From Minisyncoccota bacterium (GTDB lineage Bacteria; Patescibacteriota; Minisyncoccia; Phycocordibacterales; UBA9973), in contig JBAYVZ010000004.1 in the NCBI GenBank assembly GCA_041674285.1, positions 21,913 to 85,912 on the forward strand: DNA of 64,000 nt, written 5' to 3'. This document shows positions 4,348-54,968 of this stretch, one piece after another. The notes beneath the pieces were generated by a model that saw nothing but the letters and a program-made list of their open reading frames with translations, ran no database searches and was not told where the DNA came from. The position numbers and the translations under genes are program-made. Position 1 is the stretch's first letter; each line of letters opens with the position of its first letter.

Positions 4348-4468
4348 CCCGTTAGAAGTCATTTATGTCAGATCACGCACGGGAATAAATATTATTTTTT
4401 GAGTTATATTTTGATTTTATTATTTATAATTATGTACGATAATCTAAAGATTATCTACTTCTAACGGG
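4348..4468. repeat. Palindrome-bounded element, copy A: 12-bp perfect terminal inverted repeats CCCGTTAGAAGT / ACTTCTAACGGG enclosing a 97-bp AT-rich core with an internal 7-bp-stem/TAAA-loop hairpin; the 3' arm abuts the ftsK ATG
   Basis: 4348-4359 cccgttagaagt; 4457-4468 acttctaacggg; ATG of ftsK at 4469. Internal hairpin gataatc-taaa-gattatc at 4438-4455. Related copies at 22561-22677, 39291-39408 and 20736-20805; solo arm at 38027-38036. Confidence 0.7.
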
Positions 4469-31278: not shown

Positions 31279-31794
31279 TTATTTTAGTCGTCCGGGGTGA
31301 TAACCACCCTCCTCTTCATATTTTTCTTTTTTACTCTCTTCTTCTGGTGTTATAAACTTACCTTTTTCTTCCAGAGTTCTCTGCATCCACAATCTGTATA
31401 ATTCACTAGCATGCATAGTATCGGTAGATATAAACATTGGAACATCGTACGAATGCAATTCACCAAGGAAAACAGTTAATCGTTCTGATAAATCAGAAGT
31501 AGTAGTCAACATAAGCATATACTGATCTACATCTTCTAGTACTCCGTGCCATGGATACACCGACTCAACGGGCCACAAATCTCCACACACTGCCATATGA
31601 TTCTCTACTGCGGACCGGGCCAGATCACGCGCCTCGTCCCTATCTCTGCATGTAGTATACACAAACACGGCACCTTCTGAATCTTTATTTATTTTATCTA
31701 TAATCATTGATTCTGCGGAATCACATCGCGCAAGTCGATTTAGCGCGATGCTCTTCAAATTAATAATAATTAAATCACTTCCTGCTGATAACAC
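31279..31794 (-). CDS. cutA: CutA1-like divalent-cation tolerance protein (start probably at the internal MIIDKINKD Met)
   Basis: VFVYTTCRDRDEARDLARSAVENHMAVCGDLWPVESVYPWHGVLEDVDQYMLMLTTTSDLSERLTVFLGELHSYDVPMFI follows the CutA trimer-fold pattern (...SxYxWxG.IxE..E..L..KT...L...v...HpYe.P). The annotated 5' end overlaps the upstream Cys-rich gene by 25 nt. Confidence 0.55.
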   Translation of the reverse strand: MLSAGSDLIIINLKSIALNRLARCDSAESMIIDKINKDSEGAVFVYTTCRDRDEARDLARSAVENHMAVCGDLWPVESVYPWHGVLEDVDQYMLMLTTTSDLSERLTVFLGELHSYDVPMFISTDTMHASELYRLWMQRTLEEKGKFITPEEESKKEKYEEEGGYHPGRLK

Positions 31795-33482
31795 TTCTCA
31801 CAATAAATAACCTCTGGTCGGTCTGGAGCGTAGCTAGTCTGGAATTCATTATCACAACCTTCGTGCATACATTTTCTGTTCCAGAGCTTTAAAGGTGTTC
31901 TTTTTGAAAATCTTTCTTTGTGACGACACTGATAACACATCCTAGGTATCGGAATATTGAATCTTTTGTAAAAGGTTAATTCATCTCGAGTTAGACGAAA
32001 TGCCCCAGAGCAACGATCGGATCCAGGGAATGTATCGCAAGATATTATTTCTTGCAGAATATCGAGGGAGGTATCTATTATTGAATCAGGAATTTGCTCT
32101 GTTTTAATTGTGGGATTATGATTTTGATTATCTTTATCTCTATATAAATAACCATTGCTAATGGTATCCTCTTTAGATAAAGGATAGAAGTAATTAGCGA
32201 TAGTCTCATTATAGGCAAATGGTGAAAATTCTATTGGGAAAAATTCTCCATATTTATACACCCTACCCTTTTTATCAACATATGGCATATCAATCATATG
32301 CTTTTTAATTTTACCAACCATATCAAAATATTCTTCTTTTGAATATTGTTTATTTAAAATACAATATGATTTATTTCTAAGACCAATACACCCAAATAAA
32401 TCATGCGAATTATAACAATTAAAAGAATATTCTACATTACTTGAGTTATAAACAACATTTGAAAAATTACAATTTGTGCCCCCTACTCCGGAGTCACAAG
32501 ACTCAAAACTATTTTCTAGCAGTCCAATAGCATTACAATAATAACAATCAAAAATATTTTCAGCTGCCCAGTACAAATATTTAGTATTTTTAACATTACC
32601 AGAAGCATCAAATATATGCTGACTATCAACAACGCCACTGAGGTCATTCCCTGTAGCATTATGACAATTAATCAACGCAGCATATTTATGAATTGAATTT
32701 AATTTTAATTCTTCAAAATCTTTTTTTAGTTTCTGAATTGTATTATAACTACCCAGATCATATTGTTTTATTTTTTCAAAATACTCCTCTTTTGAATATT
32801 GAATATTATTAAAACAATAGCTCTTGTTGCGGAGATTAGACGACATAAAACAATTCACACAACCCTTACAGTCATATAGGAAATAAGAGTCAGTTGATGA
32901 ATTTGTTTTTTCACAATAAAAAATTTTGTAAGAATCTACACAGTAAATATCCTGATAACAAAACTCACTATTGTGAACAACATACAAATCAGAAGAATCT
33001 TTAACTTTTGTAATAGAATCAGAATACATCGTTCTTTCATTTTTCCAACAAGCAGAACATAGATAACAGTCATAATTTTCTTCTGCTACATTACAATAAT
33101 CACTATTAACAGATTTTGAATTTGATAGGGCCTGAAATGGAACAACATCACGCAGAGCACGCCATTGTGAGAAAAAATCAACAGAAAAATCAAAATCACG
33201 TCCATAGTCAAATGGATCCCATTGGTCACCCCACCAATATTTTTGATCTACAATATTCATCTTTACATCTGGGTGATATATAGAGATTAAATCTTTCCCC
33301 GTCACACTATCTGGACGCCTATATAGAGCGTGAGTATTACGCCAAGCAAAACGTCTTTGATGTGAACAATCCGGGCAAAATGTAGGTGGTGGGACTTTTA
33401 TCTTGTCATAAAACGCAAAATCCTCTGGCTCTATCGTGAAATCCTGCAGGCAGTTCTGACATTGACGTGCTTCTTTATTCAT
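31770..33482 (-). CDS. Cysteine-rich zinc-ribbon repeat protein, paralog 1 (uncharacterised family; 570 aa, ~40 Cys)
   Basis: N-terminal CQNC...FYDKIKVPPPTFCPDC; C-terminal CYQCRH...C...YAPDRPEVIYCEKCYQQEVI; internal duplicated block ...C.GC.NCFMSSNLRNKSYCFNNIQYSKEEYF... / ...GCIGLRNKSYCILNKQYSKEEYF...YVDKKGRVYKYGEFFP. No signal peptide or TM. Confidence 0.6.
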   Translation of the reverse strand: MNKEARQCQNCLQDFTIEPEDFAFYDKIKVPPPTFCPDCSHQRRFAWRNTHALYRRPDSVTGKDLISIYHPDVKMNIVDQKYWWGDQWDPFDYGRDFDFSVDFFSQWRALRDVVPFQALSNSKSVNSDYCNVAEENYDCYLCSACWKNERTMYSDSITKVKDSSDLYVVHNSEFCYQDIYCVDSYKIFYCEKTNSSTDSYFLYDCKGCVNCFMSSNLRNKSYCFNNIQYSKEEYFEKIKQYDLGSYNTIQKLKKDFEELKLNSIHKYAALINCHNATGNDLSGVVDSQHIFDASGNVKNTKYLYWAAENIFDCYYCNAIGLLENSFESCDSGVGGTNCNFSNVVYNSSNVEYSFNCYNSHDLFGCIGLRNKSYCILNKQYSKEEYFDMVGKIKKHMIDMPYVDKKGRVYKYGEFFPIEFSPFAYNETIANYFYPLSKEDTISNGYLYRDKDNQNHNPTIKTEQIPDSIIDTSLDILQEIISCDTFPGSDRCSGAFRLTRDELTFYKRFNIPIPRMCYQCRHKERFSKRTPLKLWNRKCMHEGCDNEFQTSYAPDRPEVIYCEKCYQQEVI

Positions 33483-34725: not shown

Positions 34726-34788
34726 TGTTCTACTGTATCACAAAATTAAACACTACGCATAAAAAACTCACCCGGATGGGTGAGTTTT

Positions 34789-35334
34789 TTATGCTCTTGA
34801 GATGTATTTATAATTCCAAAGTATCAACATTAGGAATACTCCCATTGACAGTGCCATAACAGGGATAGATACATAAGAGAATTCATATACATATCGCACT
34901 GCACATGACACCTCGGTAGCACTACCCGTAGCACAAGCGAGATTTGACGCTCCTCCATGTTCTACATATATATGGAATAGTGATATTATGCTACCGATAA
35001 ATGCGAGAACTAGTGCGTAGTCCACTATCACCTTTTCCCTCTTCCAGAGCTCCATACCAAAAAGAATAACTTGTGGATAGATAAATATTCTCTGCATCCA
35101 ACACAATTCACAAGCTGGAAATCCAATCACATTTGAATAGAATAAACTAATTGCCATAGCTCCAAATGCAGTTAGGAATCCAATTATAAATGTGTAGTCG
35201 TGCAAAAATTTCAAAAACACATTATCTTTTTTTCTAAAAAACAAAAGTGCTCCAAAAATAGTAAAGCAAAAAAGCTGTATGAAAATCGTCCCTAGAGACA
35301 ATATATAATTCAATGTAGGTACGTAAGTAGGCAT
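34789..35334 (-). CDS. DsbB/BdbC-family disulfide-bond formation protein
   Basis: 4 TM; periplasmic loop GFPACELCWMQRIFIYPQ (CxxC followed by WxQR, typical of BdbC/DsbB); second Cys pair in the distal loop. Confidence 0.7.
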   Translation of the reverse strand: MPTYVPTLNYILSLGTIFIQLFCFTIFGALLFFRKKDNVFLKFLHDYTFIIGFLTAFGAMAISLFYSNVIGFPACELCWMQRIFIYPQVILFGMELWKREKVIVDYALVLAFIGSIISLFHIYVEHGGASNLACATGSATEVSCAVRYVYEFSYVSIPVMALSMGVFLMLILWNYKYISRA

Positions 35335-35335
35335 A

Positions 35336-35923
35336 TTATTGAGGTAGAGTAAACTTTATCTGTTCGGCCAAGAATTCAAGAGGAATCTCTCCTACTGCCA
35401 TAGCACTGCTATCAAAATTCCAAACATCACCATTTTGAACTGGATCTTTTTCTGACTTTATTGAGAATTTATAATTTGAAAATACCCAAACTTTTGCGTA
35501 CTCTGAATGTATATTTGCACAGACAGCAGGCTCCCCCTCAATCTTTGCCCCAGTAGGACTAGGAGCACAAGCAAGAGGCTTTGGGTCGGAAGATTTCAAT
35601 GTTATACCATTCTTGAATGTCCAAGATGGGTAACTCTCTACTTTATTAGCCTTGCACTCATTCGTCTGACCTCGTGAATCAGGGGTAGAACATTCTACAT
35701 AAGGTATATACTTTTTAGAGCTACCAAAAAGAGCTTTTGTAGCCTGACAATGCGGACACCAAAATGCCCCATAGAATACTGCACCCTCAGATTTGAGAGC
35801 TTGTGCAAAAGCGTCATACTTTCCAGGTTTTGCAGTTTTTTCAACAATAAAACCAACACCCATAATCAATATAATAATAGCAACAACAGACACGATGAAT
35901 ATATTTTGTTTTGTTTTAAACAT
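35336..35923 (-). CDS. Membrane-anchored thioredoxin-fold thiol-disulfide oxidoreductase (DsbA-like; motif type usually fused to VKOR)
   Basis: FYGAFWCPHCQATKALFG matches the Trx domain partnered with bacterial VKOR (YGAYWCPHCQ). N-terminal TM. Overlaps DsbB by 1 nt, so probably co-transcribed. Confidence 0.7.
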   Translation of the reverse strand: MFKTKQNIFIVSVVAIIILIMGVGFIVEKTAKPGKYDAFAQALKSEGAVFYGAFWCPHCQATKALFGSSKKYIPYVECSTPDSRGQTNECKANKVESYPSWTFKNGITLKSSDPKPLACAPSPTGAKIEGEPAVCANIHSEYAKVWVFSNYKFSIKSEKDPVQNGDVWNFDSSAMAVGEIPLEFLAEQIKFTLPQ

Positions 35924-35949: not shown

Positions 35950-37995
35950 TTAAAAGAAATTAAAAATTAAACCAAAAAATGTTGTAATATTATGCCACAC
36001 AACCCTTGTGATTGCGGGTATTTTAGATACAAACGGTGCAGAACTCGCACTTGCTACTAGGTTATTTTTTGCTGGCACAGGACTATCCACAATATCATTC
36101 CTAACGACAGGTGTTATCTTTTTTACTTCTTTATTTGGTTTTTTTACTTCTTCTTTTTTTATTTCTTTTTTAGCTTCTTGAATGACTGGAGTAATCGGTA
36201 TAATTTTTTCTTGAACAACAGGAATGATAACAGCAGGAATAATTTCCACTTTATTTTCACCTGAAGTTTTTACTATTTCTGTGACTGCAGGCTTCTCAAA
36301 GTCAGACAGTATGTCTATCCATGATTTGAGTGATTCTGCTGTTAGCGCATAAGAGGTAGCCCAGACACGTGAATCTACATCGCTACCTATATCCCCTACA
36401 CCACCATCACTTTTCTGTTGTGATGATACATAATTTCTCGCATTAGACAAAGCAGATGCAAATTCAGATCCGAGTGATAGTGCCTGTATAGCCCAGCTTG
36501 TAGAAGATACATTGTCCCCTATACGCCCATCAGAAGATTGATTGCTGGTTAGATAAATATAAGCTTTGTCTATATAATCTGAGACTCCATTTTTATTTTT
36601 AAAAGGAGACAATGCCATTATCGCAGCAGATGTCATATCAACACTATTATCCCAAGACCCATTTGAGTATTGTTTAGTTTTTATAAAATCAATAGTATTG
36701 GCGATTATCTCATCTTTATATGAATACCCTGCTTTTTTCAAAACGATCAAGCCAAAGATGTCATCATTATCCAGGTTCGCATCCCCTATCTGAACTCCAT
36801 CAAATTTTCCTACAATTTTTGAGATATAGTCTACGTTTGTACCGCTATATGGATTTATACCGAGAGCCATCAGGGCCATCGCATGGCGCTCATTGTCAGT
36901 CACAGTGCTTGATGTAAAATTATTTGATGTTAGATATACAGCGATGCTTTCAATCAGAGCTGAGTCACCAGTAGATCCAATAGCGACAGCCCCCCAGTCC
37001 GTATACAATGATGTACCCAAAGATCCATCTGATTTTTTATTGGCATTTAAAAAAACTACTGCATTTTCTTTTGAGAAAGTTACTACAACAGGAGCACTAT
37101 TTGAACCACCAGAAGACACAGGCTCCGATACAGACACAGAATAAGATGGAAAATAATAATCCTCTGATACTCCTATATTGTATGCACCTGGACTTGAGAA
37201 AGAAAGATTTGCACTCCCCATATCATCTACCAACGTAGTTGATATTACGGTTGGATTCCATGGATCATTCGGATTTGTCTGGGTTATGCCGATATTCACC
37301 CCGGTACGCACCACCCATGTATCGTCTGTATAATTATAAGATTTTGCCTGTGCAGTTATGGACCCAGTAGTTGTGATTGTATTAGTATCTAAGTCTACCT
37401 TGTATGGACTACCAAAATACAAACCAATATTTTCTCCTCCTGAGAGAACAGTCGCATCGATACTTGTCCAAGGGCTAGCACCTCCTACTACATACTGCCA
37501 ATTATCACACACTTCTCCGGATGAATTTATATTTAAACATTTCAAATAAAAAGAAGAAAAAGAATCATAGTACTGCAGACTAGAAAGTGAGAAAGAATCT
37601 TCTGATTGATCGAGAGTGTATAGCACACCGAGCACACTCCGAGAATTCACAGAGTGAGATACTCCCACATTATCTAGTATATCTATATTCCCTTCTGGAG
37701 GTAGAGCAATATCCCCACTATACACAACGTCCGCACCATTACGAATAAATATATTTTCATACAAAATTGGTGCAGGTTCTTCAGCTTGATTTTGCTCTAC
37801 CGGAGGCTGTTCTTCTGTGGGGATTTCTTGTACCGGAGACTGCTCTTCTAGTGGGGCTGGCGTTGAATTCTGAGTCTCTTCTACTGGCGGATTTCCAGTA
37901 TTCTGATCTGTCTGAGTAGAATCTTCTGCATATACAAAAAATCCTGAGAAAATAAAACCGAGTATTATTAAGATAGAAAATATATTTTTTTTCAT
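35950..37995 (-). CDS. Secreted protein with Pro/Glu/Thr-rich linker and C-terminal prenyltransferase/squalene-oxidase-type alpha/alpha-toroid repeats (likely start at MKKNIFS, position 37995)
   Basis: Signal peptide MKKNIFSILIILGFIFSGFFVYA. Repeats KQYSNGSWDNSVDMTSAAIMAL / NQSSDGRIGDNVSSTSWAIQALS / QQKSDGGVGDIGSDVDSRVWATSYALT fit the QxxxDGSW-type toroid repeat. The 16-codon N-extension in the track ORF contains a solo element arm (CCCGTTAGGA). Confidence 0.6.
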   Translation of the reverse strand: MKKNIFSILIILGFIFSGFFVYAEDSTQTDQNTGNPPVEETQNSTPAPLEEQSPVQEIPTEEQPPVEQNQAEEPAPILYENIFIRNGADVVYSGDIALPPEGNIDILDNVGVSHSVNSRSVLGVLYTLDQSEDSFSLSSLQYYDSFSSFYLKCLNINSSGEVCDNWQYVVGGASPWTSIDATVLSGGENIGLYFGSPYKVDLDTNTITTTGSITAQAKSYNYTDDTWVVRTGVNIGITQTNPNDPWNPTVISTTLVDDMGSANLSFSSPGAYNIGVSEDYYFPSYSVSVSEPVSSGGSNSAPVVVTFSKENAVVFLNANKKSDGSLGTSLYTDWGAVAIGSTGDSALIESIAVYLTSNNFTSSTVTDNERHAMALMALGINPYSGTNVDYISKIVGKFDGVQIGDANLDNDDIFGLIVLKKAGYSYKDEIIANTIDFIKTKQYSNGSWDNSVDMTSAAIMALSPFKNKNGVSDYIDKAYIYLTSNQSSDGRIGDNVSSTSWAIQALSLGSEFASALSNARNYVSSQQKSDGGVGDIGSDVDSRVWATSYALTAESLKSWIDILSDFEKPAVTEIVKTSGENKVEIIPAVIIPVVQEKIIPITPVIQEAKKEIKKEEVKKPNKEVKKITPVVRNDIVDSPVPAKNNLVASASSAPFVSKIPAITRVVWHNITTFFGLIFNFF

Positions 37996-38048
37996 ATTAT
38001 TATTTATATTTAAATTGCGATCGCGGATCCTAACGGGATTCATATCCT

Positions 38049-38570
38049 TTAATTAATAAAGCCTTCTCTCTCCCATCGCACAGCATCACCCTCTTTCAAA
38101 AAATTCTTAGATATACCCACAGATGCTTTTTTATCATTTAAATAATACACCCAATATTTACCCTCATTACCTTGTAAACCATTGATACTATCTACAAACA
38201 TACCCATACCACTATAGTCTTTTGACGTAAAAGTAAAATATTTATTTTGAGTAGATAAATCTACCATTGATTGGTATATACTCACCCCTTCTGAGGCTTT
38301 GGATTCGTAAATTTTATCTTCAACGATTATTTTGATATTTATCTCATTTTTATCTATCTCTGGAATTATTTCTTTTACTTCTGAAATTTTATAAGTAACT
38401 TTTTTGGAACTTTCAGTTTTTCTCGGTACTAGCTTTGGGGCCTCTATTTTAGGTGTAGTATTCACTACTGATTCAGAGTTGCTAACTTTTTTAGAATACT
38501 GATAAAAGAAAGCAATAGACAGTATGACTAGGACAGCGAACAAAAATATTTTAATATATTTATTTTTCAT
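38049..38570 (-). CDS. DUF4430-domain protein (transcobalamin/intrinsic-factor beta-domain-like), membrane-anchored
   Basis: N-terminal TM; C-terminal ...GMFVDSINGLQGNEGKYWVYYLNDKKASVGISKNFLKEGDAVRWEREGF matches DUF4430 (GxxWxYxVNG...G...Y.L.dGD.I.W.Y). Confidence 0.6.
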   Translation of the reverse strand: MKNKYIKIFLFAVLVILSIAFFYQYSKKVSNSESVVNTTPKIEAPKLVPRKTESSKKVTYKISEVKEIIPEIDKNEINIKIIVEDKIYESKASEGVSIYQSMVDLSTQNKYFTFTSKDYSGMGMFVDSINGLQGNEGKYWVYYLNDKKASVGISKNFLKEGDAVRWEREGFIN

Positions 38571-38768
38571 AATAAATTAATGCATACTAAATAATAAAAA
38601 CTCCTGCACGGGCAGAAGTTTTTATATCCTTTTTTACAAAGAGATTTCCTGCTCGGGTGAACAATTTATATATTAAGATCGGACTTGTCTCTTGCGAGCT
38701 TTACCGTTGCGGCACAGTGGAGGAATATGACCTCACTTCCAAACATATAAACTTAAATTTTAAATGAA

Positions 38769-39290
38769 TTATACTCGGACAACTTCTGGAATAACAACGA
38801 CTGCAGTACTTTCCTTTTCTACCCATCTTTCAATCATTGGTGATAGAACTATAGCAAAGGATACATTTGAAAGCAAATGAATAGCCGTGAATGGTATCTG
38901 ACCTACTATTGCCGCCATGAATGATTGCCCAAAGAATAGTGGACCCATAGTCAAACCAGTAACAACATCAAATACGATAGTACTTACAAATGCGAATTTA
39001 GCATAGTTCTTCCATCCTGTACGATTCTGGAAATAGAAAGATGCAGCAAGACCAACTAATCCATAGGCAATACCTGCAAATAGTGTCCACACACCAAATC
39101 CTACTGTAAACATGTCGTACACAGCCACAGACAAGAAACCAAATAAAAATGAATACAATCTACCGTATGTACGAGACAACGGCATAACCATAGCCATCAG
39201 AGGCTCCAGATTTGGAGCCCTAAATGGTAGCAGTCGAACCAGTAGTCCAACTACAAACAGAGATATAATTTTGATTGGGTTTTTCTTCAT
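38769..39290 (-). CDS. Small polytopic membrane protein, ECF-transporter S-component-like (candidate cobalamin-specific CbrT-type)
   Basis: 173 aa, 5-6 TM, no soluble domains. Adjacent to DUF4430 and the toroid protein, which is a common ECF S-component context. Assignment by context and topology only. Confidence 0.4.
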   Translation of the reverse strand: MKKNPIKIISLFVVGLLVRLLPFRAPNLEPLMAMVMPLSRTYGRLYSFLFGFLSVAVYDMFTVGFGVWTLFAGIAYGLVGLAASFYFQNRTGWKNYAKFAFVSTIVFDVVTGLTMGPLFFGQSFMAAIVGQIPFTAIHLLSNVSFAIVLSPMIERWVEKESTAVVVIPEVVRV

Positions 39291-39408
39291 CCCGTTAGAA
39301 GTAGATACTCTTTAGAGTATCGTACATAATTTAACTAATAAACTCGAATATAACTAATTTATTCAAATAAAATCCGTAGCTAGAATAACATGCATGACTT
39401 CTAACGGG
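39291..39408. repeat. Palindrome-bounded element, copy C (IR CCCGTTAGAAGT / ACTTCTAACGGG) between nrdJ and the ECF-S-like gene; the left arm abuts that gene's ATG
   Basis: 39291-39302 and 39397-39408. Read on the minus strand it ends ...gatactc-taaa-gagtatc-t-acttctaacggg-ATG. Apart from compensatory stem changes it is nearly identical to the 3' end of copy A. Confidence 0.7.
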
Positions 39409-39426
39409 ATCATAAGTTTTTTTATC

Positions 39427-41796
39427 TTACACGATATCGCAAACTCCTGCAACACAAGCCAATTCTTTCTTTACCTCAGTCTCATCACGTAGTTCATAAG
39501 TCACGATCTTTGAGAAATCAAAGTCAGGCATGCGACTTGCGAGCTGTTCAAAGGTCTCTTTTGTTATCGCTTCATATGGAGCTAGCTGGTACACGTGATT
39601 TGAACGTGGTAGGAATGATAGTCCACCTACGATATCCCAGTTCTGATATAGCCAGTGCGCTACCTTGATCCATTCATTCTCCCCCACTGATATAGTCACA
39701 GATGGATTGTGCTCTGTATAATTTACCTTTACAACCTTCCAGTGCTCTAGCTGATCAATAGCAGATATATCATCTTTACATATCGCACCGTCTGGAGCTT
39801 TCATTGGGAATTCTAGAACAAAAGTATTTGCATCTTCTGCATTCTGCCCCACCTCTGCATGATATGGCACACCTTGGTCCTTCATCATTTTGAATAGTGA
39901 GTCTGTAGCAGAGATACGAACACGACGGATATAGTACGGAGCATGACGTGGGTGCATACCAGATGCACAATCCACAGTCTGAGATACAGTACCAGAAGGC
40001 TTCACTGCTGTGATACATGTAGATTCACTAACACCAAATTTCTTTGCATAAATCTTGTTTATACGGATAGCTTCTAGGCGGAGCTTTTCTAACATCTTTG
40101 CATCACGCGCCAAAGTCGAATCCCACTGACCAGTCACTGACACTCCTAGGAGTCTCTCCTCATCACAATTCTCCTTCCATTCCTTTGAAAGGTACCCGAA
40201 TTTTGTAAGTGTTGATTGATATGTTCCTAGAATTGTAGCGATACGGATCTTCTTCATCAGAGTCTTCTCTGTATCTTCTGCACGGGCTACAACTTCTGAA
40301 AGATTGCAGAACTGTTTTGATCGGAGGATAATCTCCCCACAAGGGTTTGTACCCATCTCTCCGATAAAGTCACGGGACTTTTCTACACGCCTCTTTGGTA
40401 GCGATGTATATAGTGATCCACGATTAAATATTCCACGCTCTCCTGTACCTGACTCCATAAGTGCAATCCACTCTCTTAGGAATTCTGTTTCTGTAGGTTT
40501 TGTATTGTATACAGCAGAGTTATTTGCGAGCATTCTCTGGCCTTCATTGTTCCAGAATTGACCATTCTTTGCATCACGCATGTCCTGATCATCTAGATCT
40601 GATAGTGAGATAAGTGCAGAACGACGTACTCCACCAGATACTACACACTCACCTATTTTACAGATGATATCGTGCGCATCGATATTGCGAAGATGTCTTC
40701 CTTGACGACGTAGGATACGTTCACGAGTAAAACCGAGTAGGTCTATCAATGGTTTTGGACCAGAGCTCTTGCCTCCCATGATCTTGAGACGTGCACCAGA
40801 AGGACGCAATAGAGAGAAATCGAAATCAACGTCCTCTCCGTTGAACCATGTCTTCATACCAAATACGAGTGCATCTGCCCAGCCCTCTTTTGTATCAGGA
40901 ACCACGTATGTAGGCTGCTTTTTGCCTACCTGAGTTTTGATCTGAGGAAGAGATTGAATATTCTGACTTTCGACAGAGAATCCTACTCCAGTACCACACA
41001 TAGATATGTAGACTATCTCACCAAAGTCTTGGAGCTTTGATGGTGCGATAAATGAACAATTGTACGCACATACATTTGTCTTCTCTGCTGCAGGTCCTGC
41101 GAATTGGAGTAGGCGCATTGATGGCATAGCTTCTTGCTTCAAAATACCTTCACGCACTTCTCCATACTCATCGACAGATAACATATCTCCGAGCTTTCCT
41201 TTCATGAATGACATATAGCGATCTACTGTCTCGATCCATGTCTCGCGTCTACCCTGCTCTTCGATCCATTTGGCATAAGTACGATAGTATACGAATTCAG
41301 AAAGTGGATTTCTGAAATATTTTTTACTTTCATCTGCGAGCTGCTTTACATGTGGAGGAACAGACATACTGTGTGATCGGAGACGAGCACGTTCTTCACG
41401 GTATAGGATGTAGTGCTTTGAAGTCTTTACATAATCAGAGAGCATGAGCTCCTGCTCTACGCTATCCTGGATACCCTCTACTGTAGGTACAAAGTTTTTG
41501 TACTTCTTTGCGATCTTTATCATGTCCATCAATACACGACTAGCCACTAGGTGAGCCTCTTCGATAGAGCCTTCTCCTGCTGCAAGCATAGCTTTATTAA
41601 TAGCATTCGTAATTTTTTCAATATCGAATGGAACAGTCGATCCATCACGACGTTGAACGCTTTTAATAAAATTATTCTTTATCTTTATCTCTGTTTTTTT
41701 CACAGGAGTTGCTTCTACTTTCTCTACAACCTCTACTTTTTTCGCGACCACTTTCACTTTTTTTGTAGCCTTAACTACTTTCTTTTTTGATGGCAT
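39427..41796 (-). CDS. nrdJ: Ribonucleotide reductase, class II (adenosylcobalamin-dependent), with N-terminal ATP-cone
   Basis: ATP-cone (VQRRDGSTVPFDIEKITNAINKA); active-site NPCGEI; C-terminal Cys pair CVAGVCDIV. The monomeric ~790-aa architecture has no separate beta-subunit gene, and there is no glycyl-radical motif. Confidence 0.8.
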   Translation of the reverse strand: MPSKKKVVKATKKVKVVAKKVEVVEKVEATPVKKTEIKIKNNFIKSVQRRDGSTVPFDIEKITNAINKAMLAAGEGSIEEAHLVASRVLMDMIKIAKKYKNFVPTVEGIQDSVEQELMLSDYVKTSKHYILYREERARLRSHSMSVPPHVKQLADESKKYFRNPLSEFVYYRTYAKWIEEQGRRETWIETVDRYMSFMKGKLGDMLSVDEYGEVREGILKQEAMPSMRLLQFAGPAAEKTNVCAYNCSFIAPSKLQDFGEIVYISMCGTGVGFSVESQNIQSLPQIKTQVGKKQPTYVVPDTKEGWADALVFGMKTWFNGEDVDFDFSLLRPSGARLKIMGGKSSGPKPLIDLLGFTRERILRRQGRHLRNIDAHDIICKIGECVVSGGVRRSALISLSDLDDQDMRDAKNGQFWNNEGQRMLANNSAVYNTKPTETEFLREWIALMESGTGERGIFNRGSLYTSLPKRRVEKSRDFIGEMGTNPCGEIILRSKQFCNLSEVVARAEDTEKTLMKKIRIATILGTYQSTLTKFGYLSKEWKENCDEERLLGVSVTGQWDSTLARDAKMLEKLRLEAIRINKIYAKKFGVSESTCITAVKPSGTVSQTVDCASGMHPRHAPYYIRRVRISATDSLFKMMKDQGVPYHAEVGQNAEDANTFVLEFPMKAPDGAICKDDISAIDQLEHWKVVKVNYTEHNPSVTISVGENEWIKVAHWLYQNWDIVGGLSFLPRSNHVYQLAPYEAITKETFEQLASRMPDFDFSKIVTYELRDETEVKKELACVAGVCDIV

Positions 41797-42019
41797 ATTT
41801 TTATAAAAAATTAATAATAATGTATCCTCCGATACTTTGGACTATTATTATACCGCCCGACCAAAACCATGCCAATACCCAAAACAGGCAAAAAAGCACT
41901 ATGTCGGACACTTACCCCGTCGTCAACTGCATCCCTGACAGAGCATTAAAACAGAAGTTATTTTCAGAAAAATTTACTAAAACTAAAAAACTACAAAAAA
42001 TTTCATTTTTTGTAGTTTT

Positions 42020-42499
42020 TTATCTGATTTTTTCTATTTTACAAGATAGTATATTGTAATTTTCATCAAAAACGGCACCTCCCTCAAAATATTCTCTATT
42101 TAGAAAAAATGGGAACCAATATTTATCAGATTTCCACATCTTCTCAAAAGGGATTTTATCTATATGGAACCAGTATGGAATCATCTCGTTACTCTCAACT
42201 AGAACTCCTGTACAATCCAAGCCTTCATATATATGAACTTCCTTAATAGAATCAAAAAATTCAAATTTCATAACTCCACGAAGCTCGTATTTCAATAAAT
42301 CTAAATCCGATTCCTCTTTCATCTCGCGCACGAGTGCCTGCTCCACACTCTCCTCCGGATCTACCTTGCCACCGTAGCCATTATAGTTCCCGGCGCCAAA
42401 ACGAACTTTCTTCATGCCAAGCAAAAGTTCATCCTCTTTTCGCAAGATACAAAGAGTCATAACTTGCGTAGGTTTTTGAATGTTATTTTCTTTATTCAT
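42020..42499 (-). CDS. NUDIX hydrolase (MutT-like)
   Basis: Nudix box GGKVDPEESVEQALVREMKEESDL (GX5EX7REUXEEXGU). Confidence 0.8.
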   Translation of the reverse strand: MNKENNIQKPTQVMTLCILRKEDELLLGMKKVRFGAGNYNGYGGKVDPEESVEQALVREMKEESDLDLLKYELRGVMKFEFFDSIKEVHIYEGLDCTGVLVESNEMIPYWFHIDKIPFEKMWKSDKYWFPFFLNREYFEGGAVFDENYNILSCKIEKIR

Positions 42500-42564: not shown

Positions 42565-44277
42565 CTAGAGTACTTCTTGTTGATAACATTTCTCACAATA
42601 TACCCTCTCTGGTCGATCTGGGGCATAGGTTGTTTGAAAAGTGGTTCCGCAGTTGTTTGAACATTCGCGATTATACAAACTGAGAGGGTTTCTGTATCTT
42701 AGTCTTTCTTCGTGTCGACAATTTGGGCATAATCTAGGAATGGGTAAATTATTCTTCTTGCAAAATTCTAGTTCTTCTTTTTTTATTCTAAAAGCATATG
42801 TACATTGATTACTAAAACCTTCAACTTTACTACACAAAATAACATCATCTAATATTGAGTCATTTATTTCGGAGATACAATCAGGTAGAGTGTCCTTGTC
42901 CTGATTAGTCTTGTAGTCTCTAATGTCTCTTTCATACCAGTTATAACCCATATCAAGAGCAGTATCTTTCGAAATAGGATACATATCATTGGCAAGAGAC
43001 TCATTGTAGCCAAATAATGAAAATCCAGTAGGAAAAAACTCTCCGTACTTATAAACCCTACCCTGTTTATCTACATAAGGAATATATATCATATGTTTTT
43101 TTATTTTACCTACAGCATCAAAATATGCATCTTTTGAATATTGCTTGTTTAATATACAATATCTTGCATTCGTAAGACCAACACAACCAATACAATCAGT
43201 ACAATTTTTACATGAGATAGAATACTGTATATCTCTTGAGCTTACACACATAAAACAAGAAACTTGGTTGAAGGACCCCCCGCTGCCAGTCATTGTCTCG
43301 TACTCGAGCTCCCCAGCCAAAACCCATCCGCAATCCATTAGATCTTTTGATTTTACAATACGATAAGAATAACTAATATCTTCAGCCTCCATTATATCGA
43401 ATGATTTTTTTACATTCTTTGATCTTGTGATTATATCCCCAGAAACATCGACAGAAGCGATTACATTTGCAAAGCGATGGGTAGCAGAACTTATTAAGCC
43501 TTTAAATTCATCTTTTAAAATAACCAAGGTTTTAAAAGAACCTCTCTCTAAATCCTGGATGGCTTTTTCGTAGTCAGATTTTGATAATTTTACATTCCTA
43601 AAGACATAAGATTCATTTCTTAACCCTGAAGACATAAAACAATTCGAGCAGTTAGAACAATCAAAAAGAAATGAAGAGTCCATACAATTCTTGGATTCAA
43701 ACATATAGTGACAATTATAATTTTTCTCTGAATTTATATTCCAAGAGCACTGCTGTATATCTATACAAGACAAACAATCAAAACAATCTTTTGATCTATC
43801 TACATTTTCGGAATAAAAAATATTTTCTGATTCAATAGATGAAAAAGATAGGTATAAATTTTTAGAATTTACTATTGAGTTAGAATAGTCACTATCCAAG
43901 TTTGTCCCATATCGAATAGAAAAAACTCTCGGTTGAACATTCAAAATATTTTTAAGCTGAGTAAAAAAATCTTTAGAAAAATCAACATCTGCTGAAAATT
44001 TATACATATCCCAGTTGTCGCCAGAATAACAACTCTCACAGTAAACAGGAGCGCCATCATCCTTATAAAAAGAAATTAAATTTTTTTTACAAACACCACA
44101 AGAGCGAGAATGAAGAGATCTATTGTTTCTCCATGAGAGTCTTCGGATATTTCTACACTCCGGGCAGAATGTCGGTGGTGGGACTTTGATCTTGTCATAG
44201 AACACAAAATCCTCTGGATCAATAGTGAAATCCCCTTTGCAATTCTGACACATTCTTTTTTCTGTTTGATATTCCAT
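42565..44277 (-). CDS. Cysteine-rich zinc-ribbon repeat protein, paralog 2 (tandem with paralog 3; start taken at MEYQTEKRMCQNC)
   Basis: Same architecture as 31770-33482: CQNCKGDFTIDPEDFVFYDKIKVPPPTFCPEC ... YVDKQGRVYKYGEFFP ... CPNCRHEER...YAPDRPERVYCEKCYQQEVL. The ORF-track start at 44355 would overlap paralog 3; the internal Met at 44277 removes the overlap. Confidence 0.6.
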   Translation of the reverse strand: MEYQTEKRMCQNCKGDFTIDPEDFVFYDKIKVPPPTFCPECRNIRRLSWRNNRSLHSRSCGVCKKNLISFYKDDGAPVYCESCYSGDNWDMYKFSADVDFSKDFFTQLKNILNVQPRVFSIRYGTNLDSDYSNSIVNSKNLYLSFSSIESENIFYSENVDRSKDCFDCLSCIDIQQCSWNINSEKNYNCHYMFESKNCMDSSFLFDCSNCSNCFMSSGLRNESYVFRNVKLSKSDYEKAIQDLERGSFKTLVILKDEFKGLISSATHRFANVIASVDVSGDIITRSKNVKKSFDIMEAEDISYSYRIVKSKDLMDCGWVLAGELEYETMTGSGGSFNQVSCFMCVSSRDIQYSISCKNCTDCIGCVGLTNARYCILNKQYSKDAYFDAVGKIKKHMIYIPYVDKQGRVYKYGEFFPTGFSLFGYNESLANDMYPISKDTALDMGYNWYERDIRDYKTNQDKDTLPDCISEINDSILDDVILCSKVEGFSNQCTYAFRIKKEELEFCKKNNLPIPRLCPNCRHEERLRYRNPLSLYNRECSNNCGTTFQTTYAPDRPERVYCEKCYQQEVL

Positions 44278-44281
44278 ATTT

Positions 44282-46036
44282 TTACAATACTTCTTTTTGA
44301 TAACACTTCTCGCAATATACTTTTTCAGGTCTGTCTGGGGAGTAGCTAGTCTCAAACTCTACATCACACTGCACTACGTGATCATGATTATCCAGATCAC
44401 ACATGCACTGACGGTGCCAGAGCTTCATTGGATTACGTTTTGACAATCTGTCCGCATGACGACAGCTATAGCAAACTCGAGGCAGTGGAATAACGAGCCT
44501 CTTGTAGAAAGAAACTTCTACTTCATTCATTTTATAAGCTTTTGTGCAAGTTACATACTTATCATTGTTTATATTTTTACATTCTACAATCTCACCCAGG
44601 ATAGAATCATTTACATCAATGATTGAATCAGGCAGTTCAGAGGACTTCACAGTAATATTGTATTGTTTATTTACTTTTGGTATATATTGAAAATTTTTCT
44701 GAACTAAATCATTTTCATTCAAAGGGAAAAAGTCCCCTGCAACAGTATCATTATAAGCATAAGGAGCAATCTCTATAGGAAAAAATTCTCCATATTTATA
44801 GATATTCCCCATGCTGTCACTGTAAGGGATTTCATTCATCTGTTTTTTTATTCTGCCTAGCAACTCAAAATATTCATCTTTTTCATACTGCTTGTTGAAT
44901 ATACAATAATTTTTATTTTTCAAACTCACACAACCAAAACAATTATTGCAAGAATAGCAATTAAATGAATACTCTACATTCGTAGAATTCCAAACAACTA
45001 CACTAAATTTTACATTACTATTAGCTACACCGATACTAATACCCTCATAAGTAAGTTCTGACTTTCCACCTGCACCAGGGCCGACATCGTATGAATCCTT
45101 CAATCCAAAAGTCCCCCAGTTACAATATTTGATATTCTCGACACCCCTTGGCAGATCAAAAGAATAATATGCATCTTTTGCATTTTGCATATTATCCCCC
45201 ACCACATTTACACAGTTGGTAAGCTGGGCGTATTTCCTAATGGCATTTTTCTTTAATAACTCAAATGATGCCTTATGATTTTGAATTGATGCATAACTAC
45301 TCAAATTAAATTCTTTAATTTTTTCTTTATATTCATCTTTTGAGTATTGAATATTGTTTATGCAATAAGATTTATTTCTCAAACTATTACACATAAAACA
45401 ATCAGTACAATTCCTACAGTCAAAAAGAAAATATGAATTTACACAGTTATATGAGTTCTCGCTATAAAACAATCGAGACGAATCCCCACAATAAATATCC
45501 TCGTACGAGAAATCTAGCTTGTGGCTGATATATGAATCTACTGTATTCTGACAAAATGATATCCTGTTTGAATACATAGAATCTTCACATGTCCAAACAG
45601 CAGAAAGCATATAATTATTTTTACTCTCAGTAATATAATTACAAAATTGATTATTTACACCCTTGCTATCAAAAAAAGAAATCAGGGGTGTTCTATATAA
45701 AAGATCTTTATACTGAGAAAAGAAATCTCGAGATAAATCATATTCGCAACCAAAAGATATAGCATCCCAACTATCACTCCACCAATAAGTATTGTCGTAA
45801 GAGGAAACAGGAATACTCTCAGGGTAAGTAGAGATCATTTTTTCTTCGGAGCCAGGCTTGTCATTCTTTCGAAAGTACAGACCTCTCTCATTTCTCCAAG
45901 CTAGACGTCTCTGCATTCTACACTCCGGACAGAATGTCGGTGGTGGGACTTTGATCTTGTCATAGAACACAAAATCCTCGGGCTCTACTACGAACTCCCC
46001 TTTGCAATTCACGCACGCTCTCGTTTCTGGGCTCAT
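44282..46036 (-). CDS. Cysteine-rich zinc-ribbon repeat protein, paralog 3
   Basis: CVNCKGEFVVEPEDFVFYDKIKVPPPTFCPECR ... LRNKSYCINNIQYSKDEY ... NKNYCIFNKQYEKDEYF...YSDSMGNIYKYGEFFP ... CYSCRHADR...YSPDRPEKVYCEKCYQKEVL. A 50-nt stretch at its 5' end is identical to paralog 2 at the DNA level. Confidence 0.6.
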   Translation of the reverse strand: MSPETRACVNCKGEFVVEPEDFVFYDKIKVPPPTFCPECRMQRRLAWRNERGLYFRKNDKPGSEEKMISTYPESIPVSSYDNTYWWSDSWDAISFGCEYDLSRDFFSQYKDLLYRTPLISFFDSKGVNNQFCNYITESKNNYMLSAVWTCEDSMYSNRISFCQNTVDSYISHKLDFSYEDIYCGDSSRLFYSENSYNCVNSYFLFDCRNCTDCFMCNSLRNKSYCINNIQYSKDEYKEKIKEFNLSSYASIQNHKASFELLKKNAIRKYAQLTNCVNVVGDNMQNAKDAYYSFDLPRGVENIKYCNWGTFGLKDSYDVGPGAGGKSELTYEGISIGVANSNVKFSVVVWNSTNVEYSFNCYSCNNCFGCVSLKNKNYCIFNKQYEKDEYFELLGRIKKQMNEIPYSDSMGNIYKYGEFFPIEIAPYAYNDTVAGDFFPLNENDLVQKNFQYIPKVNKQYNITVKSSELPDSIIDVNDSILGEIVECKNINNDKYVTCTKAYKMNEVEVSFYKRLVIPLPRVCYSCRHADRLSKRNPMKLWHRQCMCDLDNHDHVVQCDVEFETSYSPDRPEKVYCEKCYQKEVL

Positions 46037-46198: not shown

Positions 46199-48342
46199 TT
46201 ACTTACGTGACTCAATAATTGTCGTTGCTACGTTTTGAGGCACTATGTCGTAACGTAGGAATTCCATAGTGAATCCTGCGCGACCTTCTGTCATAGAACG
46301 TAGAGTTGTCATGTAACCGAACATTTCAGATAGTGGAACAACAGCTTTCACTGCTTGGTTCATACCACGTTGTTCCATACCTTCGATCAATCCACGCTTT
46401 GAAGATAGACTTCCTGTCACATCTCCCATGAATTTATCTGGAGTCACAACTTCGACATTCATCATAGGTTCTAGGATCACTGGGCGAGCCATCTTACATG
46501 CATCTTGGATTGCCATAGAGGCTGCGATCTTGAAGGCCATTTCGTTTGAGTCCACATCGTGGTAACTTCCATCCCATAGCTCGACAGATACGTTTCCCAA
46601 TTTGAATCCTGCAAGAACTCCACGATCAAGACCTTCTTTAAATCCTTTTTCACAAGCTGGAATGTATTCTTGTGGAATAGCACCTCCCTTGATTGTGTTC
46701 ACGAATTCAAATCCCTTTTCACGCTTTGTATTTCTTGGTAGATCTTCAATTGCGATACTCTGATCCATTGGCTTTACCTTGATCTTTACGTGACCGTAGT
46801 TTCCACGTCCTCCTGATTGCTTGATGTACTTGCCTTCTACATCTGCTGTACCTGTGATTGTCTCACGGTATGCAACCTGTGGCTTACCTACATTTGTCTC
46901 AACAGCGAATTCACGCTTCATACGATCTACGATAATTTCCAAGTGGAGCTCTCCCATACCTGCGATGATTGTCTCATTTGTCTCTTGGTCTGTAGCTACG
47001 CGGAATGTTGGATCCTCTTGAGCAAGACGATTCAGTGCCATACCCATTTTCTCTTGGTCGGCTTTTGTCTTTGGCTCTACACGTAGAGAGATAACTGGCT
47101 CTGGGAATATGATACGGATCAATTCTGCTGGAGCATTTTCATCACAAAGAGTATCTGAAGTGATAGTGTCTTTTAGTCCTACTGCAGCTGCGATTTCTCC
47201 AGCGTATACCTTCTTTACTTCTTCACGGTCATTGGCATGCATACGTAGGATACGTCCGATACGCTCTTTGTTTCTTGTACGAGGATTGTATACATATGAA
47301 CCTGCAGTTACAGATCCAGAGTAGACACGGAAGAATATAATCTGTCCTACGAATGGGTCAGTAGCGATTTTGAATGCTAGAGCTGAGAATGGTTCAGCAT
47401 CTGAAGCCTTACGTACTAGTGGCTCATCTGTATTTGGATCAATACCTGTGATTGGAGGAATGTCTGTAGGAGCTGGTAGGTAGTCGACAACTGCGTCTAG
47501 CACTAGTTGAACTCCTTTGTTCTTAGAGCTGATCCAGCAAATACTGGGAATACATCGTTGGCGATAACAGCCTTACGCATTAGCTTCTTTAGAGTATCGT
47601 AGTCTGGAACTTTTCCTTCGAAGTAGTCACTCATGATCTGATCATCTTGCTCAACTATTTTTTCTACTAGTTCTGCGTGATACTTTTCTGCTTCTGCCTT
47701 GTACTCTTCTGGGATTTCTTTTTCGATAACTTTGTTACCCATCTCCCCTTCAAAGTAGAAAGCCTTCATCTTCAATAGGTCGATCACACCTTCGTGCTTT
47801 TCTTCAAGACCGATTGGGATTTGCATACGGATAGCTTTTTTAGTAAGTCTATCTAGGATTGTTTTATATGAGTGCTCAAAAGATGCGCCTGTACGGTCAA
47901 GCTTGTTTACGAAACAAATACGTGGCACATTCGCCTCGTCAGCATAGCGCCAGTTTGTCTCTGACTGTGGCTCTACTCCAGCCACTCCATCGAATACAAC
48001 TACTGCACCATCGAGTACACGAAGTGAGCGCTTTACTTCTACAGTAAAGTCGATGTGTCCTGGTGTGTCGATAATGTTAAAGCGGTGCTTCTTTGTCTTG
48101 TCTGTCAGTGCGTATGTCGGTGTCCAGAAACAAGTAACAGCAGCAGATGTGATAGTGATACCACGCTCGCGCTCTTGTTCCATCCAGTCTGTAGTTGTCT
48201 CACCATAGTGCACTTCACCTATCTTGTGTGATACACCAGTGTAAAACAATACACGCTCTGTTGTTGTAGTCTTACCCGCGTCGATGTGGGCAATAATACC
48301 TATATTTCTAACTTTCTCTAAAGGATAATCTCTTTGGTCCAT
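46199..48342 (-). pseudogene. fusA: Elongation factor G, interrupted by a single-nucleotide deletion at ~47505-47520. The ORF track splits it into 47503-48342 (G domain) and 46199-47503 (domains II-V, GTG start)
   Basis: The upstream fragment ends ...[16 protein letters not shown]. Reading the same DNA in the -1 frame gives [20 protein letters not shown], the canonical continuation of EF-G. The actual sequence gctctaagaacaaagg is one A short of the expected gctctaaagaacaaagg (GSALKNKG). Confidence 0.8.
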
Positions 48343-53983: not shown

Positions 53984-54538
53984 CTACTTGTAAGTAGGAG
54001 GTTCCTCATTTATACCAGAAAAGTGGTTAGAAAGTCTAGCTAGTGCATAAAGTAGTGAAGAAAGTCGATTTAGATAAGCTTTTGTATAATCACCCACTTT
54101 TATATTCCCCTCGTCCGCTACACCTATCACTCTCCTCTCTGCTCTGCGTGAAATAGTACGAGCGACATCAAAAAATGCCGCCAATTCTGTGCCCCCAGAA
54201 ATAAAAAAAGATTTTATTGGTGGCAATTCTTTTTCTATTGTATCTACATAATTTTCTATCTCTTTTATTTTTTCCTCGGCTATAGTCATATCACTACCAG
54301 CGAGCTCTGCCTGCACAATAAAAAGATTTTGCTGTACATCATGTACAACTTTTTCAAAAAGTTCACCTGTCGGAACTTTATACCCCTTTTCAGAACTCTT
54401 TACTTTGCAGACACCCAAAAAAGAATTGATCTCATCGAGAGTCCCTAGCGCCTCTGCTATATTTGAACTCTTTGATATTCTCTGGTCGCAGCCAAAAGTT
54501 TTCGTTGTTCCATTGTCCCCTTTTCTTGTATAAAGCAT
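53984..54538 (-). CDS. ATP:cob(I)alamin adenosyltransferase, PduO/MMAB type
   Basis: MLYTRKGDNGTTKTFGCDQRISKSSNIAEALGTLDEINSFLG matches the PduO-type N-terminus (IYTKTGDKGxT.L..G.RV.K...R.EAYG.LDELNS). Confidence 0.8.
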   Translation of the reverse strand: MLYTRKGDNGTTKTFGCDQRISKSSNIAEALGTLDEINSFLGVCKVKSSEKGYKVPTGELFEKVVHDVQQNLFIVQAELAGSDMTIAEEKIKEIENYVDTIEKELPPIKSFFISGGTELAAFFDVARTISRRAERRVIGVADEGNIKVGDYTKAYLNRLSSLLYALARLSNHFSGINEEPPTYK

Positions 54539-54539
54539 G

Positions 54540-54968
54540 TTAGATATATAGACGATAAAAAGCTAATAAAAACATAAGGATAGATATCAATGCAGATGAT
54601 ATACACCACACACACCACTGTTTAATCAGAAAGCTTTGAATAAACAAAAGATAGACAGAGAATAGCACAGACATGCCAGATATCACAATAAATAGCTCGT
54701 TTATAAAAGGTGTCCACACAAGATAAAAATTTACAAACAGATAGGCTGATGTGATAAATAAATAATATACCAAACCTAGAACTTCCACGCGGAAAGGTCC
54801 AACCACAGAATAATCACTATTCGTCACAAGCTCACAATCTGTCCTAGCTGGGCAAATCAATTTTTTCTTTTCACTCTTTTTTCTATAAATATAGAAAGCG
54901 ACGAGGAAGCCCGAGATCCCGAGTATGACGAATATTATAGAGATAATCAATTCTAGGTTTATTTGCAT
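54540..54968 (-). CDS. Vitamin K epoxide reductase (VKOR)-family membrane oxidoreductase
   Basis: 142 aa, 4-5 TM; loop Cys pair (CPARTDC) and TM CxxC (WCVWCI), the VKOR redox arrangement. Confidence 0.6.
   Translation of the reverse strand: MQINLELIISIIFVILGISGFLVAFYIYRKKSEKKKLICPARTDCELVTNSDYSVVGPFRVEVLGLVYYLFITSAYLFVNFYLVWTPFINELFIVISGMSVLFSVYLLFIQSFLIKQWCVWCISSALISILMFLLAFYRLYI

Follow-up and report, generated by a model that had tools for sequence, protein, structure and literature searches.

The animal proteins transcobalamin, intrinsic factor and haptocorrin clamp vitamin B12 (cobalamin) with two folds, a DUF4430-type beta domain and an alpha/alpha-toroid. Here we analyse a locus that encodes both folds beside nrdJ, the gene for a B12-dependent ribonucleotide reductase (RNR), in a 64-kb stretch of contig JBAYVZ010000004.1 ("the window") from a Candidatus Paceibacterota bacterium of the candidate phyla radiation (CPR). 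CPR bacteria, with their reduced genomes, probably depend on other cells. An original prediction, made from the DNA sequence alone, had read four consecutive genes as an extracellular cobalamin-capture module next to the enzyme that consumes the cofactor, with a PduO adenosyltransferase elsewhere in the window. All four open reading frames (ORFs) lie where it had placed them, on the minus strand. Its core reading is supported by a cobalamin riboswitch and terminator ahead of the DUF4430 and toroid genes, an arrangement that recurs in 55 of 66 related loci; in the other 11 the pair is fused into nrdJ or pduO operons.

The idea of bacterial transcobalamin-like B12 scavenging is already published (PMC1796856; PMC5997447; bioRxiv 10.1101/864751). 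Bacterial surface proteins combining SLBB and alpha/alpha-toroid domains were predicted to be B12 scavengers by Burroughs, Balaji, Iyer and Aravind (2007, Biol Direct 2:4; PMC1796856), and occur in organisms without B12 synthesis. The proteins studied here resemble them as secreted or anchored combinations of a DUF4430/SLBB beta-grasp and a toroid, in which the SLBB domain may be N-terminal, and in the presence of a second, paralogous SLBB gene in the operon. Those proteins, however, are found mainly in Firmicutes and archaea, in operons with CbiO/CbiQ-type energy-coupling factor (ECF) genes, whereas the present host belongs to the CPR, the partner genes are nrdJ and pduO, and no ECF module of A and T components is adjacent. 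The pair is also directly controlled by a cobalamin riboswitch, which is not mentioned in that paper.

Three further systems invite comparison. The nrdJ-cbrS-cbrT-pduO cluster of Lactobacillus delbrueckii and its transporter ECF-CbrT have been characterised (Santos et al. 2018, eLife, PMC5997447; PDB 6FNP); there, as here, a class II RNR, an S-component-fold protein and PduO are clustered, in that case in a B12 auxotroph. In contrast to ECF-CbrT, the membrane protein described below has only marginal similarity to CbrT (E=0.04), and CbrT needs an ECF module, of which none was seen here. The ECF-like system Lsa1836-1840 of L. sakei has separate alpha-like (Lsa1840) and beta-like (Lsa1839) transcobalamin subunits (Verplaetse et al., bioRxiv 10.1101/864751). 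It shares with our locus the adjacent toroid and DUF4430-type genes beside an S-component, but possesses ECF A/T genes and a link to heme uptake, whereas the link to cobalamin is made here by the riboswitch and by nrdJ and pduO. In Bacteroides, the BtuJ/BtuH/BtuK/BtuG relay (reviewed in PMC13616437) likewise consists of riboswitch-regulated surface accessory proteins that capture cobamides for hand-over to a membrane transporter; its folds are unrelated (beta-propeller, DUF4465 and others), and it operates in diderm cells with the TonB-dependent BtuB and with BtuFCD. The animal proteins themselves are single chains with the alpha domain (PF01122) preceding the beta domain (PF14478). Here the order is SLBB-like module, beta-sandwich and toroid, a second beta protein is separate, the proteins are membrane-tethered, and the window's toroid protein falls under the PF01122 cutoff.

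A literature search on cobalamin riboswitches or ECF transporters in Patescibacteria returned no paper. Nor did the literature searched contain a biochemical test of bacterial SLBB and toroid proteins as B12 scavengers, and the one homologous pair studied by experiment was linked to heme. What is new here is the range of CPR hosts, control of the capture module alone by a cobalamin riboswitch, and a distinct, highly conserved family of S-like membrane proteins without an adjacent energiser.

A cobalamin riboswitch ahead of the putative capture genes

The genes and regulatory elements on which the argument rests are, in the order of transcription:

39427-41796, minus strand: nrdJ, 789 aa, class II adenosylcobalamin (AdoCbl)-dependent ribonucleoside triphosphate reductase (RTPR)-type RNR with an N-terminal ATP-cone
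38769-39290, minus strand: S-like gene, 173-aa six-helix membrane protein with the fold of an ECF S-component
38632-38768, minus strand: cobalamin riboswitch aptamer, 137 nt, Rfam RF01482 (AdoCbl), clan CL00101
38594-38625, minus strand: intrinsic terminator, a 14-pair hairpin and T-run ahead of the DUF4430 start at 38570, forming the expression platform
38049-38570, minus strand: DUF4430 gene, 173-aa membrane-anchored or secreted SLBB protein of the transcobalamin beta-domain type, first gene behind the riboswitch
35950-38043, minus strand: toroid gene, 697-aa surface protein
35336-35923, minus strand: thioredoxin (Trx)-like gene, membrane-anchored protein with a CPHC motif, putative DsbA-type oxidase
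34789-35334, minus strand: DsbB-like gene, disulfide oxidoreductase
53984-54538, minus strand: pduO, PduO-type ATP:cob(I)alamin adenosyltransferase

NrdJ belongs to class II rather than class I or III. Its domains are ATP-cone, RNR_Alpha and the class II insertion domain RNR-II_ins_dom (PF21995, 36 bits), and its closest solved relative is the AdoCbl-dependent RTPR of L. leichmannii (1L1L, E=3e-50). The translation shows the active-site motif GTNPCGEI and a C-terminal C-x4-C (ACVAGVCDIV). The best NCBIfam model is TIGR02505 (RTPR), whose score of 289 bits is under the equivalog cutoff of 340. The PduO assignment also held, with 151.5 bits to PF01923 over residues 2-169 of 184. Within the window pduO is unlinked to nrdJ; in many relatives it lies between nrdJ and the riboswitch, and it adjoins nrdJ in 26 of 66 related loci and in L009 (L numbers denote related loci). 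Neither cob/cbi genes nor other B12 enzymes were found among the approximately 60 ORFs of the window, a weak CobU match on RecA being dismissed as P-loop noise.

When the whole window was scanned with Rfam, a single match other than tRNAs was obtained: RF01482 at 38639-38766 on the minus strand, with 50.5 bits against a gathering score of 50 (E=3e-7 in a local search). It begins 2 nt past the S-like stop codon and precedes the DUF4430 gene. The original prediction had suggested that a cobalamin riboswitch might be sought elsewhere; it lies within the locus itself. The S-like gene, being upstream of the riboswitch, is outside its control.

Orthologous loci were fetched with the DUF4430, toroid and S-like proteins as queries, and a cobalamin-clan riboswitch was found in the DUF4430 leader of 10 out of 10 distinct loci. 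RF01482 scores at or above its gathering score in L001, L002, L011, L012 and L013, with top scores of 60.3 and 60.6 bits, while RF01689 passes in L009 and L010 (45.4 bits against 36.5); the scores in L006, L007 and L014 are near but under threshold. The riboswitch of L004 (7782-7950) has an intact core and gives no Rfam match at E<0.1 because a hairpin of ~27 nt is inserted in a loop; it was recovered by alignment. The invariant core reads GGAAGT...CCAC-GTGCCGC-A-GGTAA...AGTCC.

A covariance model (R1) built from the orthologous leaders was run on 80 species-representative loci, which also served as the sample for neighbourhood counts (66 of them with at least 4.5 kb upstream). Exactly one match per locus was obtained in 63 of the 80, always on the strand of the toroid gene and never outside the DUF4430 leader. 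When 56 leaders were aligned, 89.7% of cells were paired, against 31–44% in slid controls; double-sided changes were seen in 17 of 31 pairs, and covariation extended to all 10 pairs of P1. Since the leaders had been aligned to the model, these figures are biased in favour of its structure. The terminator at 38594-38625 is visible in the sequence and was found independently by a terminator scan and an inverted-repeat scan (I10). A hairpin and T-run follow the aptamer in 50 of 63 leaders, compared with 0 of 63 coding controls, with stems that vary in sequence and keep their pairing. On this comparative evidence the element is a genuine cobalamin riboswitch that probably acts by transcription termination and, because of its aptamer-terminator architecture, we infer that it works in the OFF direction. 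An antiterminator formed by pairing of the conserved CCCGAGCAGGAA box with the 5' arm of the terminator fits the window but fails in L004, and is not claimed.

A candidate promoter (38768-38797, minus strand; TTGTTA-18-TATAAT, 10/12 consensus, a pattern match only) ends at the riboswitch start and overlaps the stop codon of the S-like gene. Transcription from nrdJ and the S-like gene may read through into the riboswitch unit.

Conservation of the unit and its proposed role

The toroid family, of which 294 relatives were counted in species-level genomes, occurs widely in Paceibacteria, Nomurabacteria and their kin, the nearest genome being a Candidatus Paceibacterota metagenome-assembled genome (MAG) at 94% identity (L015). 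Hidden Markov model and phmmer scans showed the toroid gene to be directly preceded by a DUF4430 gene in 73 of 75 loci. Among the 66 loci with sufficient upstream sequence, 55 have the riboswitch, 47 nrdJ, 46 an S-like gene and 26 pduO. The riboswitch accompanies nrdJ or pduO in 36 and stands alone in 19; the 11 loci without it have a DUF4430-toroid pair abutting nrdJ or pduO, and no locus lacks both.

Two layouts dominate. The first, as in the window, runs nrdJ, S-like, riboswitch, DUF4430, toroid, Trx and DsbB; the second runs S-like, nrdJ, pduO, riboswitch, DUF4430 and toroid. In both, only extracytoplasmic proteins are encoded behind the riboswitch. Genes under B12 riboswitches serve B12 synthesis, B12 transport or are B12-independent isozymes, and extracytoplasmic proteins with binding folds therefore fit the transport class only. 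No riboswitch match was obtained in L023, L025, L031, L034, L035, L037, L060, L062, L064, L071, L091 and L093. In most riboswitch-less loci hardly any spacer separates DUF4430 from the end of nrdJ or pduO, and the genes would therefore form one unregulated nrdJ-(pduO)-DUF4430-toroid operon; L035, L037 and L064 keep a spacer of ~520 nt, in which no riboswitch was detected. Typical Paceibacteria/Nomurabacteria loci also appear under other names, in L042, L055, L070, L072 and L082 (which include Gammaproteobacteria, Burkholderiales or Saccharibacteria labels) and in many records of "uncultured Candidatus Saccharibacteria". Such off-taxon MAGs are probably mislabelled or contaminated bins.

We read this as a locus for the acquisition and use of corrinoid (vitamin B12), with a probability of about 0.78. 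In the proposed mechanism, nrdJ and the S-like gene would be transcribed independently of B12 from a promoter upstream of nrdJ. With enough intracellular cobalamin, the ligand-bound aptamer would let the hairpin and T-run stop transcription; when cobalamin is scarce, transcription would run on through the genes for the DUF4430 protein, the 697-aa SLBB-toroid protein and the Trx-like and DsbB-like proteins. The DUF4430 and SLBB-toroid proteins, extracytoplasmic and membrane-tethered, would catch corrinoid outside the cell and pass it to the S-like transporter, and the captured corrinoid would be adenosylated by PduO for NrdJ. The Dsb-type pair would most likely make the invariant disulfide of the SLBB-like module in the 697-aa protein. 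Corrinoid binding by the DUF4430 and 697-aa proteins and its hand-over to the S-like protein are proposals of this scheme, as are the form of corrinoid recognised and the energising of uptake by an ECF module. If the scheme holds, many Paceibacteria and Nomurabacteria would rely on B12 scavenging to make dNTPs and would maintain a capture apparatus that starvation switches on, which would be relevant to what CPR cells obtain from partner cells and to efforts to cultivate them.

Several observations pull the other way. The window's riboswitch is only 0.5 bit over the Rfam threshold. The 697-aa protein scores 19.6 bits on PF01122 (Cobalamin_bind), under the cutoff of 25, and a Foldseek search with its full model ranks complement/alpha2-macroglobulin (A2M) proteins first. 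The sole PDB match to the S-like sequence, CbrT (6FNP_A), is weak, with E=0.04 by single sequence and by profile. CbrT requires an ECF module (PMC5997447), and no EcfT/CbiQ gene or ECF-type ATPase pair was found in the 64-kb window; the CbiQ/EcfT family is also absent from such Pfam tables as were available among the ~90 related loci, no EcfT query having been run on 80 of these. Finally, the split alpha- and beta-like subunits of L. sakei belong to an operon linked experimentally to heme uptake (bioRxiv 10.1101/864751).

The S-like membrane protein and the probable ligand

The S-like protein passes the threshold for PF07155 (28.4 bits, cutoff 26.7), and 47 of 50 homologues match this family. 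Its AlphaFold2 (AF2) model has a predicted local distance difference test (pLDDT) score of 85 and a predicted template modelling (pTM) score of 0.80, and the top 17 PDB matches of a Foldseek search with this model are all ECF S-components (FolT, RibU, HmpT, PanT and BioY), with TM scores of 0.5–0.7. CbrT lies outside the top 50. The ECF-S-like identity given by the original prediction holds, on this model, at the level of the fold only: no ECF A/T module was found in the window or beside related loci, and the only ATP-binding cassette (ABC) ATPase in the window is part of an FtsX/HlyD efflux set. Group II ECF modules are normally unlinked to the genes of their S-components. That the S-like protein transports corrinoid is suggested by gene context, on which the assignment of its substrate rests.

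A membrane protein of the DUF6580 family is encoded after the toroid gene in L007 (9803-10357) and L008 (3791-4345). It is ~21% identical to the S-like family and has the N-terminal motif R..P...N..P in common with it. Because 3 of 50 S-like homologues match DUF6580 too, the two families are probably related. In two Nomurabacteria-type loci (L012, 3616-5388; L013, 2565-4334) a fused ABC_membrane and ABC_tran gene of exporter fold (~590 aa) stands directly upstream of nrdJ. It recalls cobalamin ABC transporters of the BacA/ABCD4 type, and the window has no equivalent.

The alternative that survives best is that the capture proteins are specific for B12 while the S-like protein imports something else, corrinoid entering through a system encoded elsewhere (e.g. 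a BacA/ABCD4-type ABC protein or BtuM/BtuCDF). It draws on the position of the S-like gene upstream of the riboswitch, which leaves it without B12 regulation, on the marginal CbrT similarity and lack of a nearby ECF module, and on the ABC gene directly upstream of nrdJ in L012 and L013. We nevertheless consider it unlikely. An S-like gene adjoins nrdJ in 46 of the 66 loci, with two different gene orders; in the nrdJ-less loci L007, L008, L084 and L094 the gene next after the toroid gene is S-like or of the DUF6580 family; and the whole arrangement mirrors nrdJ-cbrS-cbrT-pduO.

A stronger form of the corrinoid-acquisition reading is possible, though doubtful. The locus might constitute a minimal B12 route of the CPR that does without an ECF module, in which a surface-tethered two-protein "bacterial transcobalamin" relay (small SLBB protein and SLBB-toroid protein), switched on by B12 starvation alone, delivers to a solitary transporter of S-component fold. 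The Trx/DsbB pair would be a dedicated maturation factor or possibly take part in corrinoid processing. If true, the relay would be the first prokaryotic counterpart of animal transcobalamin with a defined ligand, and a main route for the supply of B12 from hosts or neighbours to episymbiotic CPR cells.

The second alternative concerns the ligand. The DUF4430 and toroid proteins could capture heme or another tetrapyrrole, as proposed for Lsa1839/Lsa1840, and neither sequence nor fold discriminates the ligand. The precedent of L. sakei is set against a cobalamin-class riboswitch in 55 of 66 loci, operon fusion with nrdJ or pduO in the rest, and a window in which no heme-related gene was seen. 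Hemin has also been used as a competitor in transport assays of ECF-CbrT. Corrinoid is favoured because of the riboswitch and the nrdJ/pduO linkage, which make heme capture improbable. A riboswitch ahead of the pair in at least 55 species-level genomes is an independent, ligand-specific argument for B12, and the question of B12 versus heme for bacterial transcobalamin-like proteins becomes directly testable.

Architecture of the proposed capture proteins and other features

The small protein matches PF14478 with 48.1 bits (cutoff 23.8), as its DUF4430 label had implied, and its translation starts with an N-terminal hydrophobic segment. The 697-aa protein comprises a signal peptide or transmembrane helix (residues 15-33) directly followed by a conserved A-E-D, a P/E-rich disordered linker, an SLBB-like module, a beta-sandwich, the toroid, a K/P-rich disordered stalk and a C-terminal helix (677-696). 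Its AF2 model (pLDDT 78.8) is confident for the beta region (residues 90-310) and the toroid (320-580). Two domains are of particular importance:

36304-37086, minus strand: alpha6/alpha6 toroid domain, residues ~320-580, 12 helices
37378-37770, minus strand: SLBB/DUF4430-like module, residues ~92-222, with invariant Cys169 and Cys179

The toroid recognised by the original prediction in a secreted protein is thus borne out by the model, its alpha6/alpha6 fold resembling the B12-binding alpha domain of transcobalamin, intrinsic factor and haptocorrin. By sequence, the protein passes SQHop_cyclase_C (28.2 bits). PF01122 is matched by 38 of 66 toroid homologues at E<=0.01 (best 1.8e-11), as strongly as the best match to SQHop_cyclase_C. 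A PDB sequence search with the DUF4430 and toroid proteins gave no transcobalamin match.

The original prediction had also proposed that the two halves of transcobalamin are split over two genes. The DUF4430 and toroid genes are indeed adjacent, but the split is not clean, as the 697-aa protein probably holds an SLBB-like module of its own. Alignment of its N-terminal module with stand-alone DUF4430 proteins by hhalign gave a probability of 64% (E=6.7e-5, 84 columns). Among isolated N-terminal modules, 8 of 18 match PF14478 at E<=1, the window's own not being among them, as do 11 of 66 full-length toroid homologues at E<=0.01. Because of these matches, the large protein is probably beta-like plus alpha, with SLBB-like module, beta-sandwich and toroid in one chain, and the small gene a second SLBB paralogue. 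Homologues matching both PF13243 and PF14478 were considered as fusions of a toroid with a C-terminal DUF4430 domain; this was rejected, the DUF4430 signal lying in the N-terminal modules, which are duplicated in some cases.

It is very improbable that the 697-aa protein is instead an enzyme (of the class II terpene cyclase or prenyltransferase type) or an alpha2-macroglobulin-like thioester protease trap that is incidentally regulated by B12. The protein is predicted to be extracytoplasmic, with a signal peptide, linkers and a C-terminal anchor, and its gene is always paired with DUF4430 and B12 genes. Reading it as an alpha2-macroglobulin/thioester protein was rejected for want of a CxEQ motif; the protein's two cysteines, Cys169 and Cys179, both belong to the N-terminal module, and the toroid has none. 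A terpene cyclase of the squalene-hopene cyclase (SHC) type was likewise rejected: DxDD lacks conservation of its first Asp, invariance being limited to N-D-D (D427, D428), the SHC position aligns to V-D-M-T, and the protein is secreted.

Finally, the narrow Rfam margin (50.5 bits against 50) would fit a chance riboswitch match in a constitutively expressed locus, which is scarcely credible given the local-search E value of 3e-7, orthologous leaders scoring up to 60.6 bits, one match per locus in the same leader of 63 loci, strong covariation and a conserved terminator.

The disulfide genes probably form the end of the riboswitch-controlled unit. The Trx-like gene (weak PF00085 match, 20.6 bits) is separated from the toroid gene by only 26 nt, in which no convincing terminator was seen, and is probably co-transcribed with the capture genes. 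The DsbB-like gene (PF02600, 45 bits; NF002849, 86 bits) is the probable last gene of the unit. In 27 of 80 related loci, genes of one or both types occur in the vicinity of the toroid gene, in some cases inverted and 2–3 kb downstream, and the invariant Cys169 and Cys179 of the SLBB-like module offer a rationale for this co-location. A VKOR gene (54540-54968) immediately precedes pduO, so both B12-related sites of the window stand beside disulfide-bond machinery.

The remaining elements in and around the locus are as follows:

41847-41875, minus strand: candidate sigma-70-type promoter of nrdJ, TTGGCA-17-TATAAT, 11/12 consensus, 50 nt upstream of the start; a pattern match only
41984-42022: perfect 18-bp hairpin with a 3-nt loop, rich in A/T-runs, between the NUDIX gene and nrdJ
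34757-34794, no strand assigned: hairpin (I4), perfect 17 bp, 100% complementary, 4-nt loop, A- and T-runs at its flanks
39289-39410 and 4346-4470: two copies of a ~122-nt element resembling a miniature inverted-repeat transposable element (MITE), bounded by the perfect 14-nt inverted repeat ATCCCGTTAGAAGT

Of the palindrome-bounded elements listed by the original prediction, one stood as a MITE-like repeat, in the spacer between nrdJ and the S-like gene (39289-39410). The others appear to be ordinary terminator hairpins: that at 41984-42022 probably parts the NUDIX and nrdJ units, and that at 34757-34794 is likely a bidirectional terminator closing the riboswitch-controlled unit before a major facilitator superfamily gene. 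The two MITE-like copies are ~78% identical and in opposite orientations, and a half-site with one mismatch is present at 1504-1515. The copy at 39289-39410 fills the nrdJ/S-like spacer and looks like an insertion, because the same spacer measures only 8 nt in L004.

Further observations concern neighbouring and related genes. In L013 (5564-7895) nrdJ is called as two genes, one for the ATP-cone and alpha domain (191 aa) and one for the catalytic part (563 aa). Three paralogous Cys-rich proteins of ~570-596 aa, encoded on the minus strand at 31770-33482, 42565-44355 and 44282-46036, flank the B12 locus; they have many CxxC pairs, a common N-terminus (FYDKIKVPPPTFCPxC) and no Pfam match, and related genes are present in L001 and L011. 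Elongation factor G is encoded by two minus-strand ORFs that meet at 47503 (46199-47503 and 47503-48342), separating the GTPase domain from domains II-V, where L004 has a single ORF of 713 aa; a frameshift, a sequencing error or a real split could each account for this.

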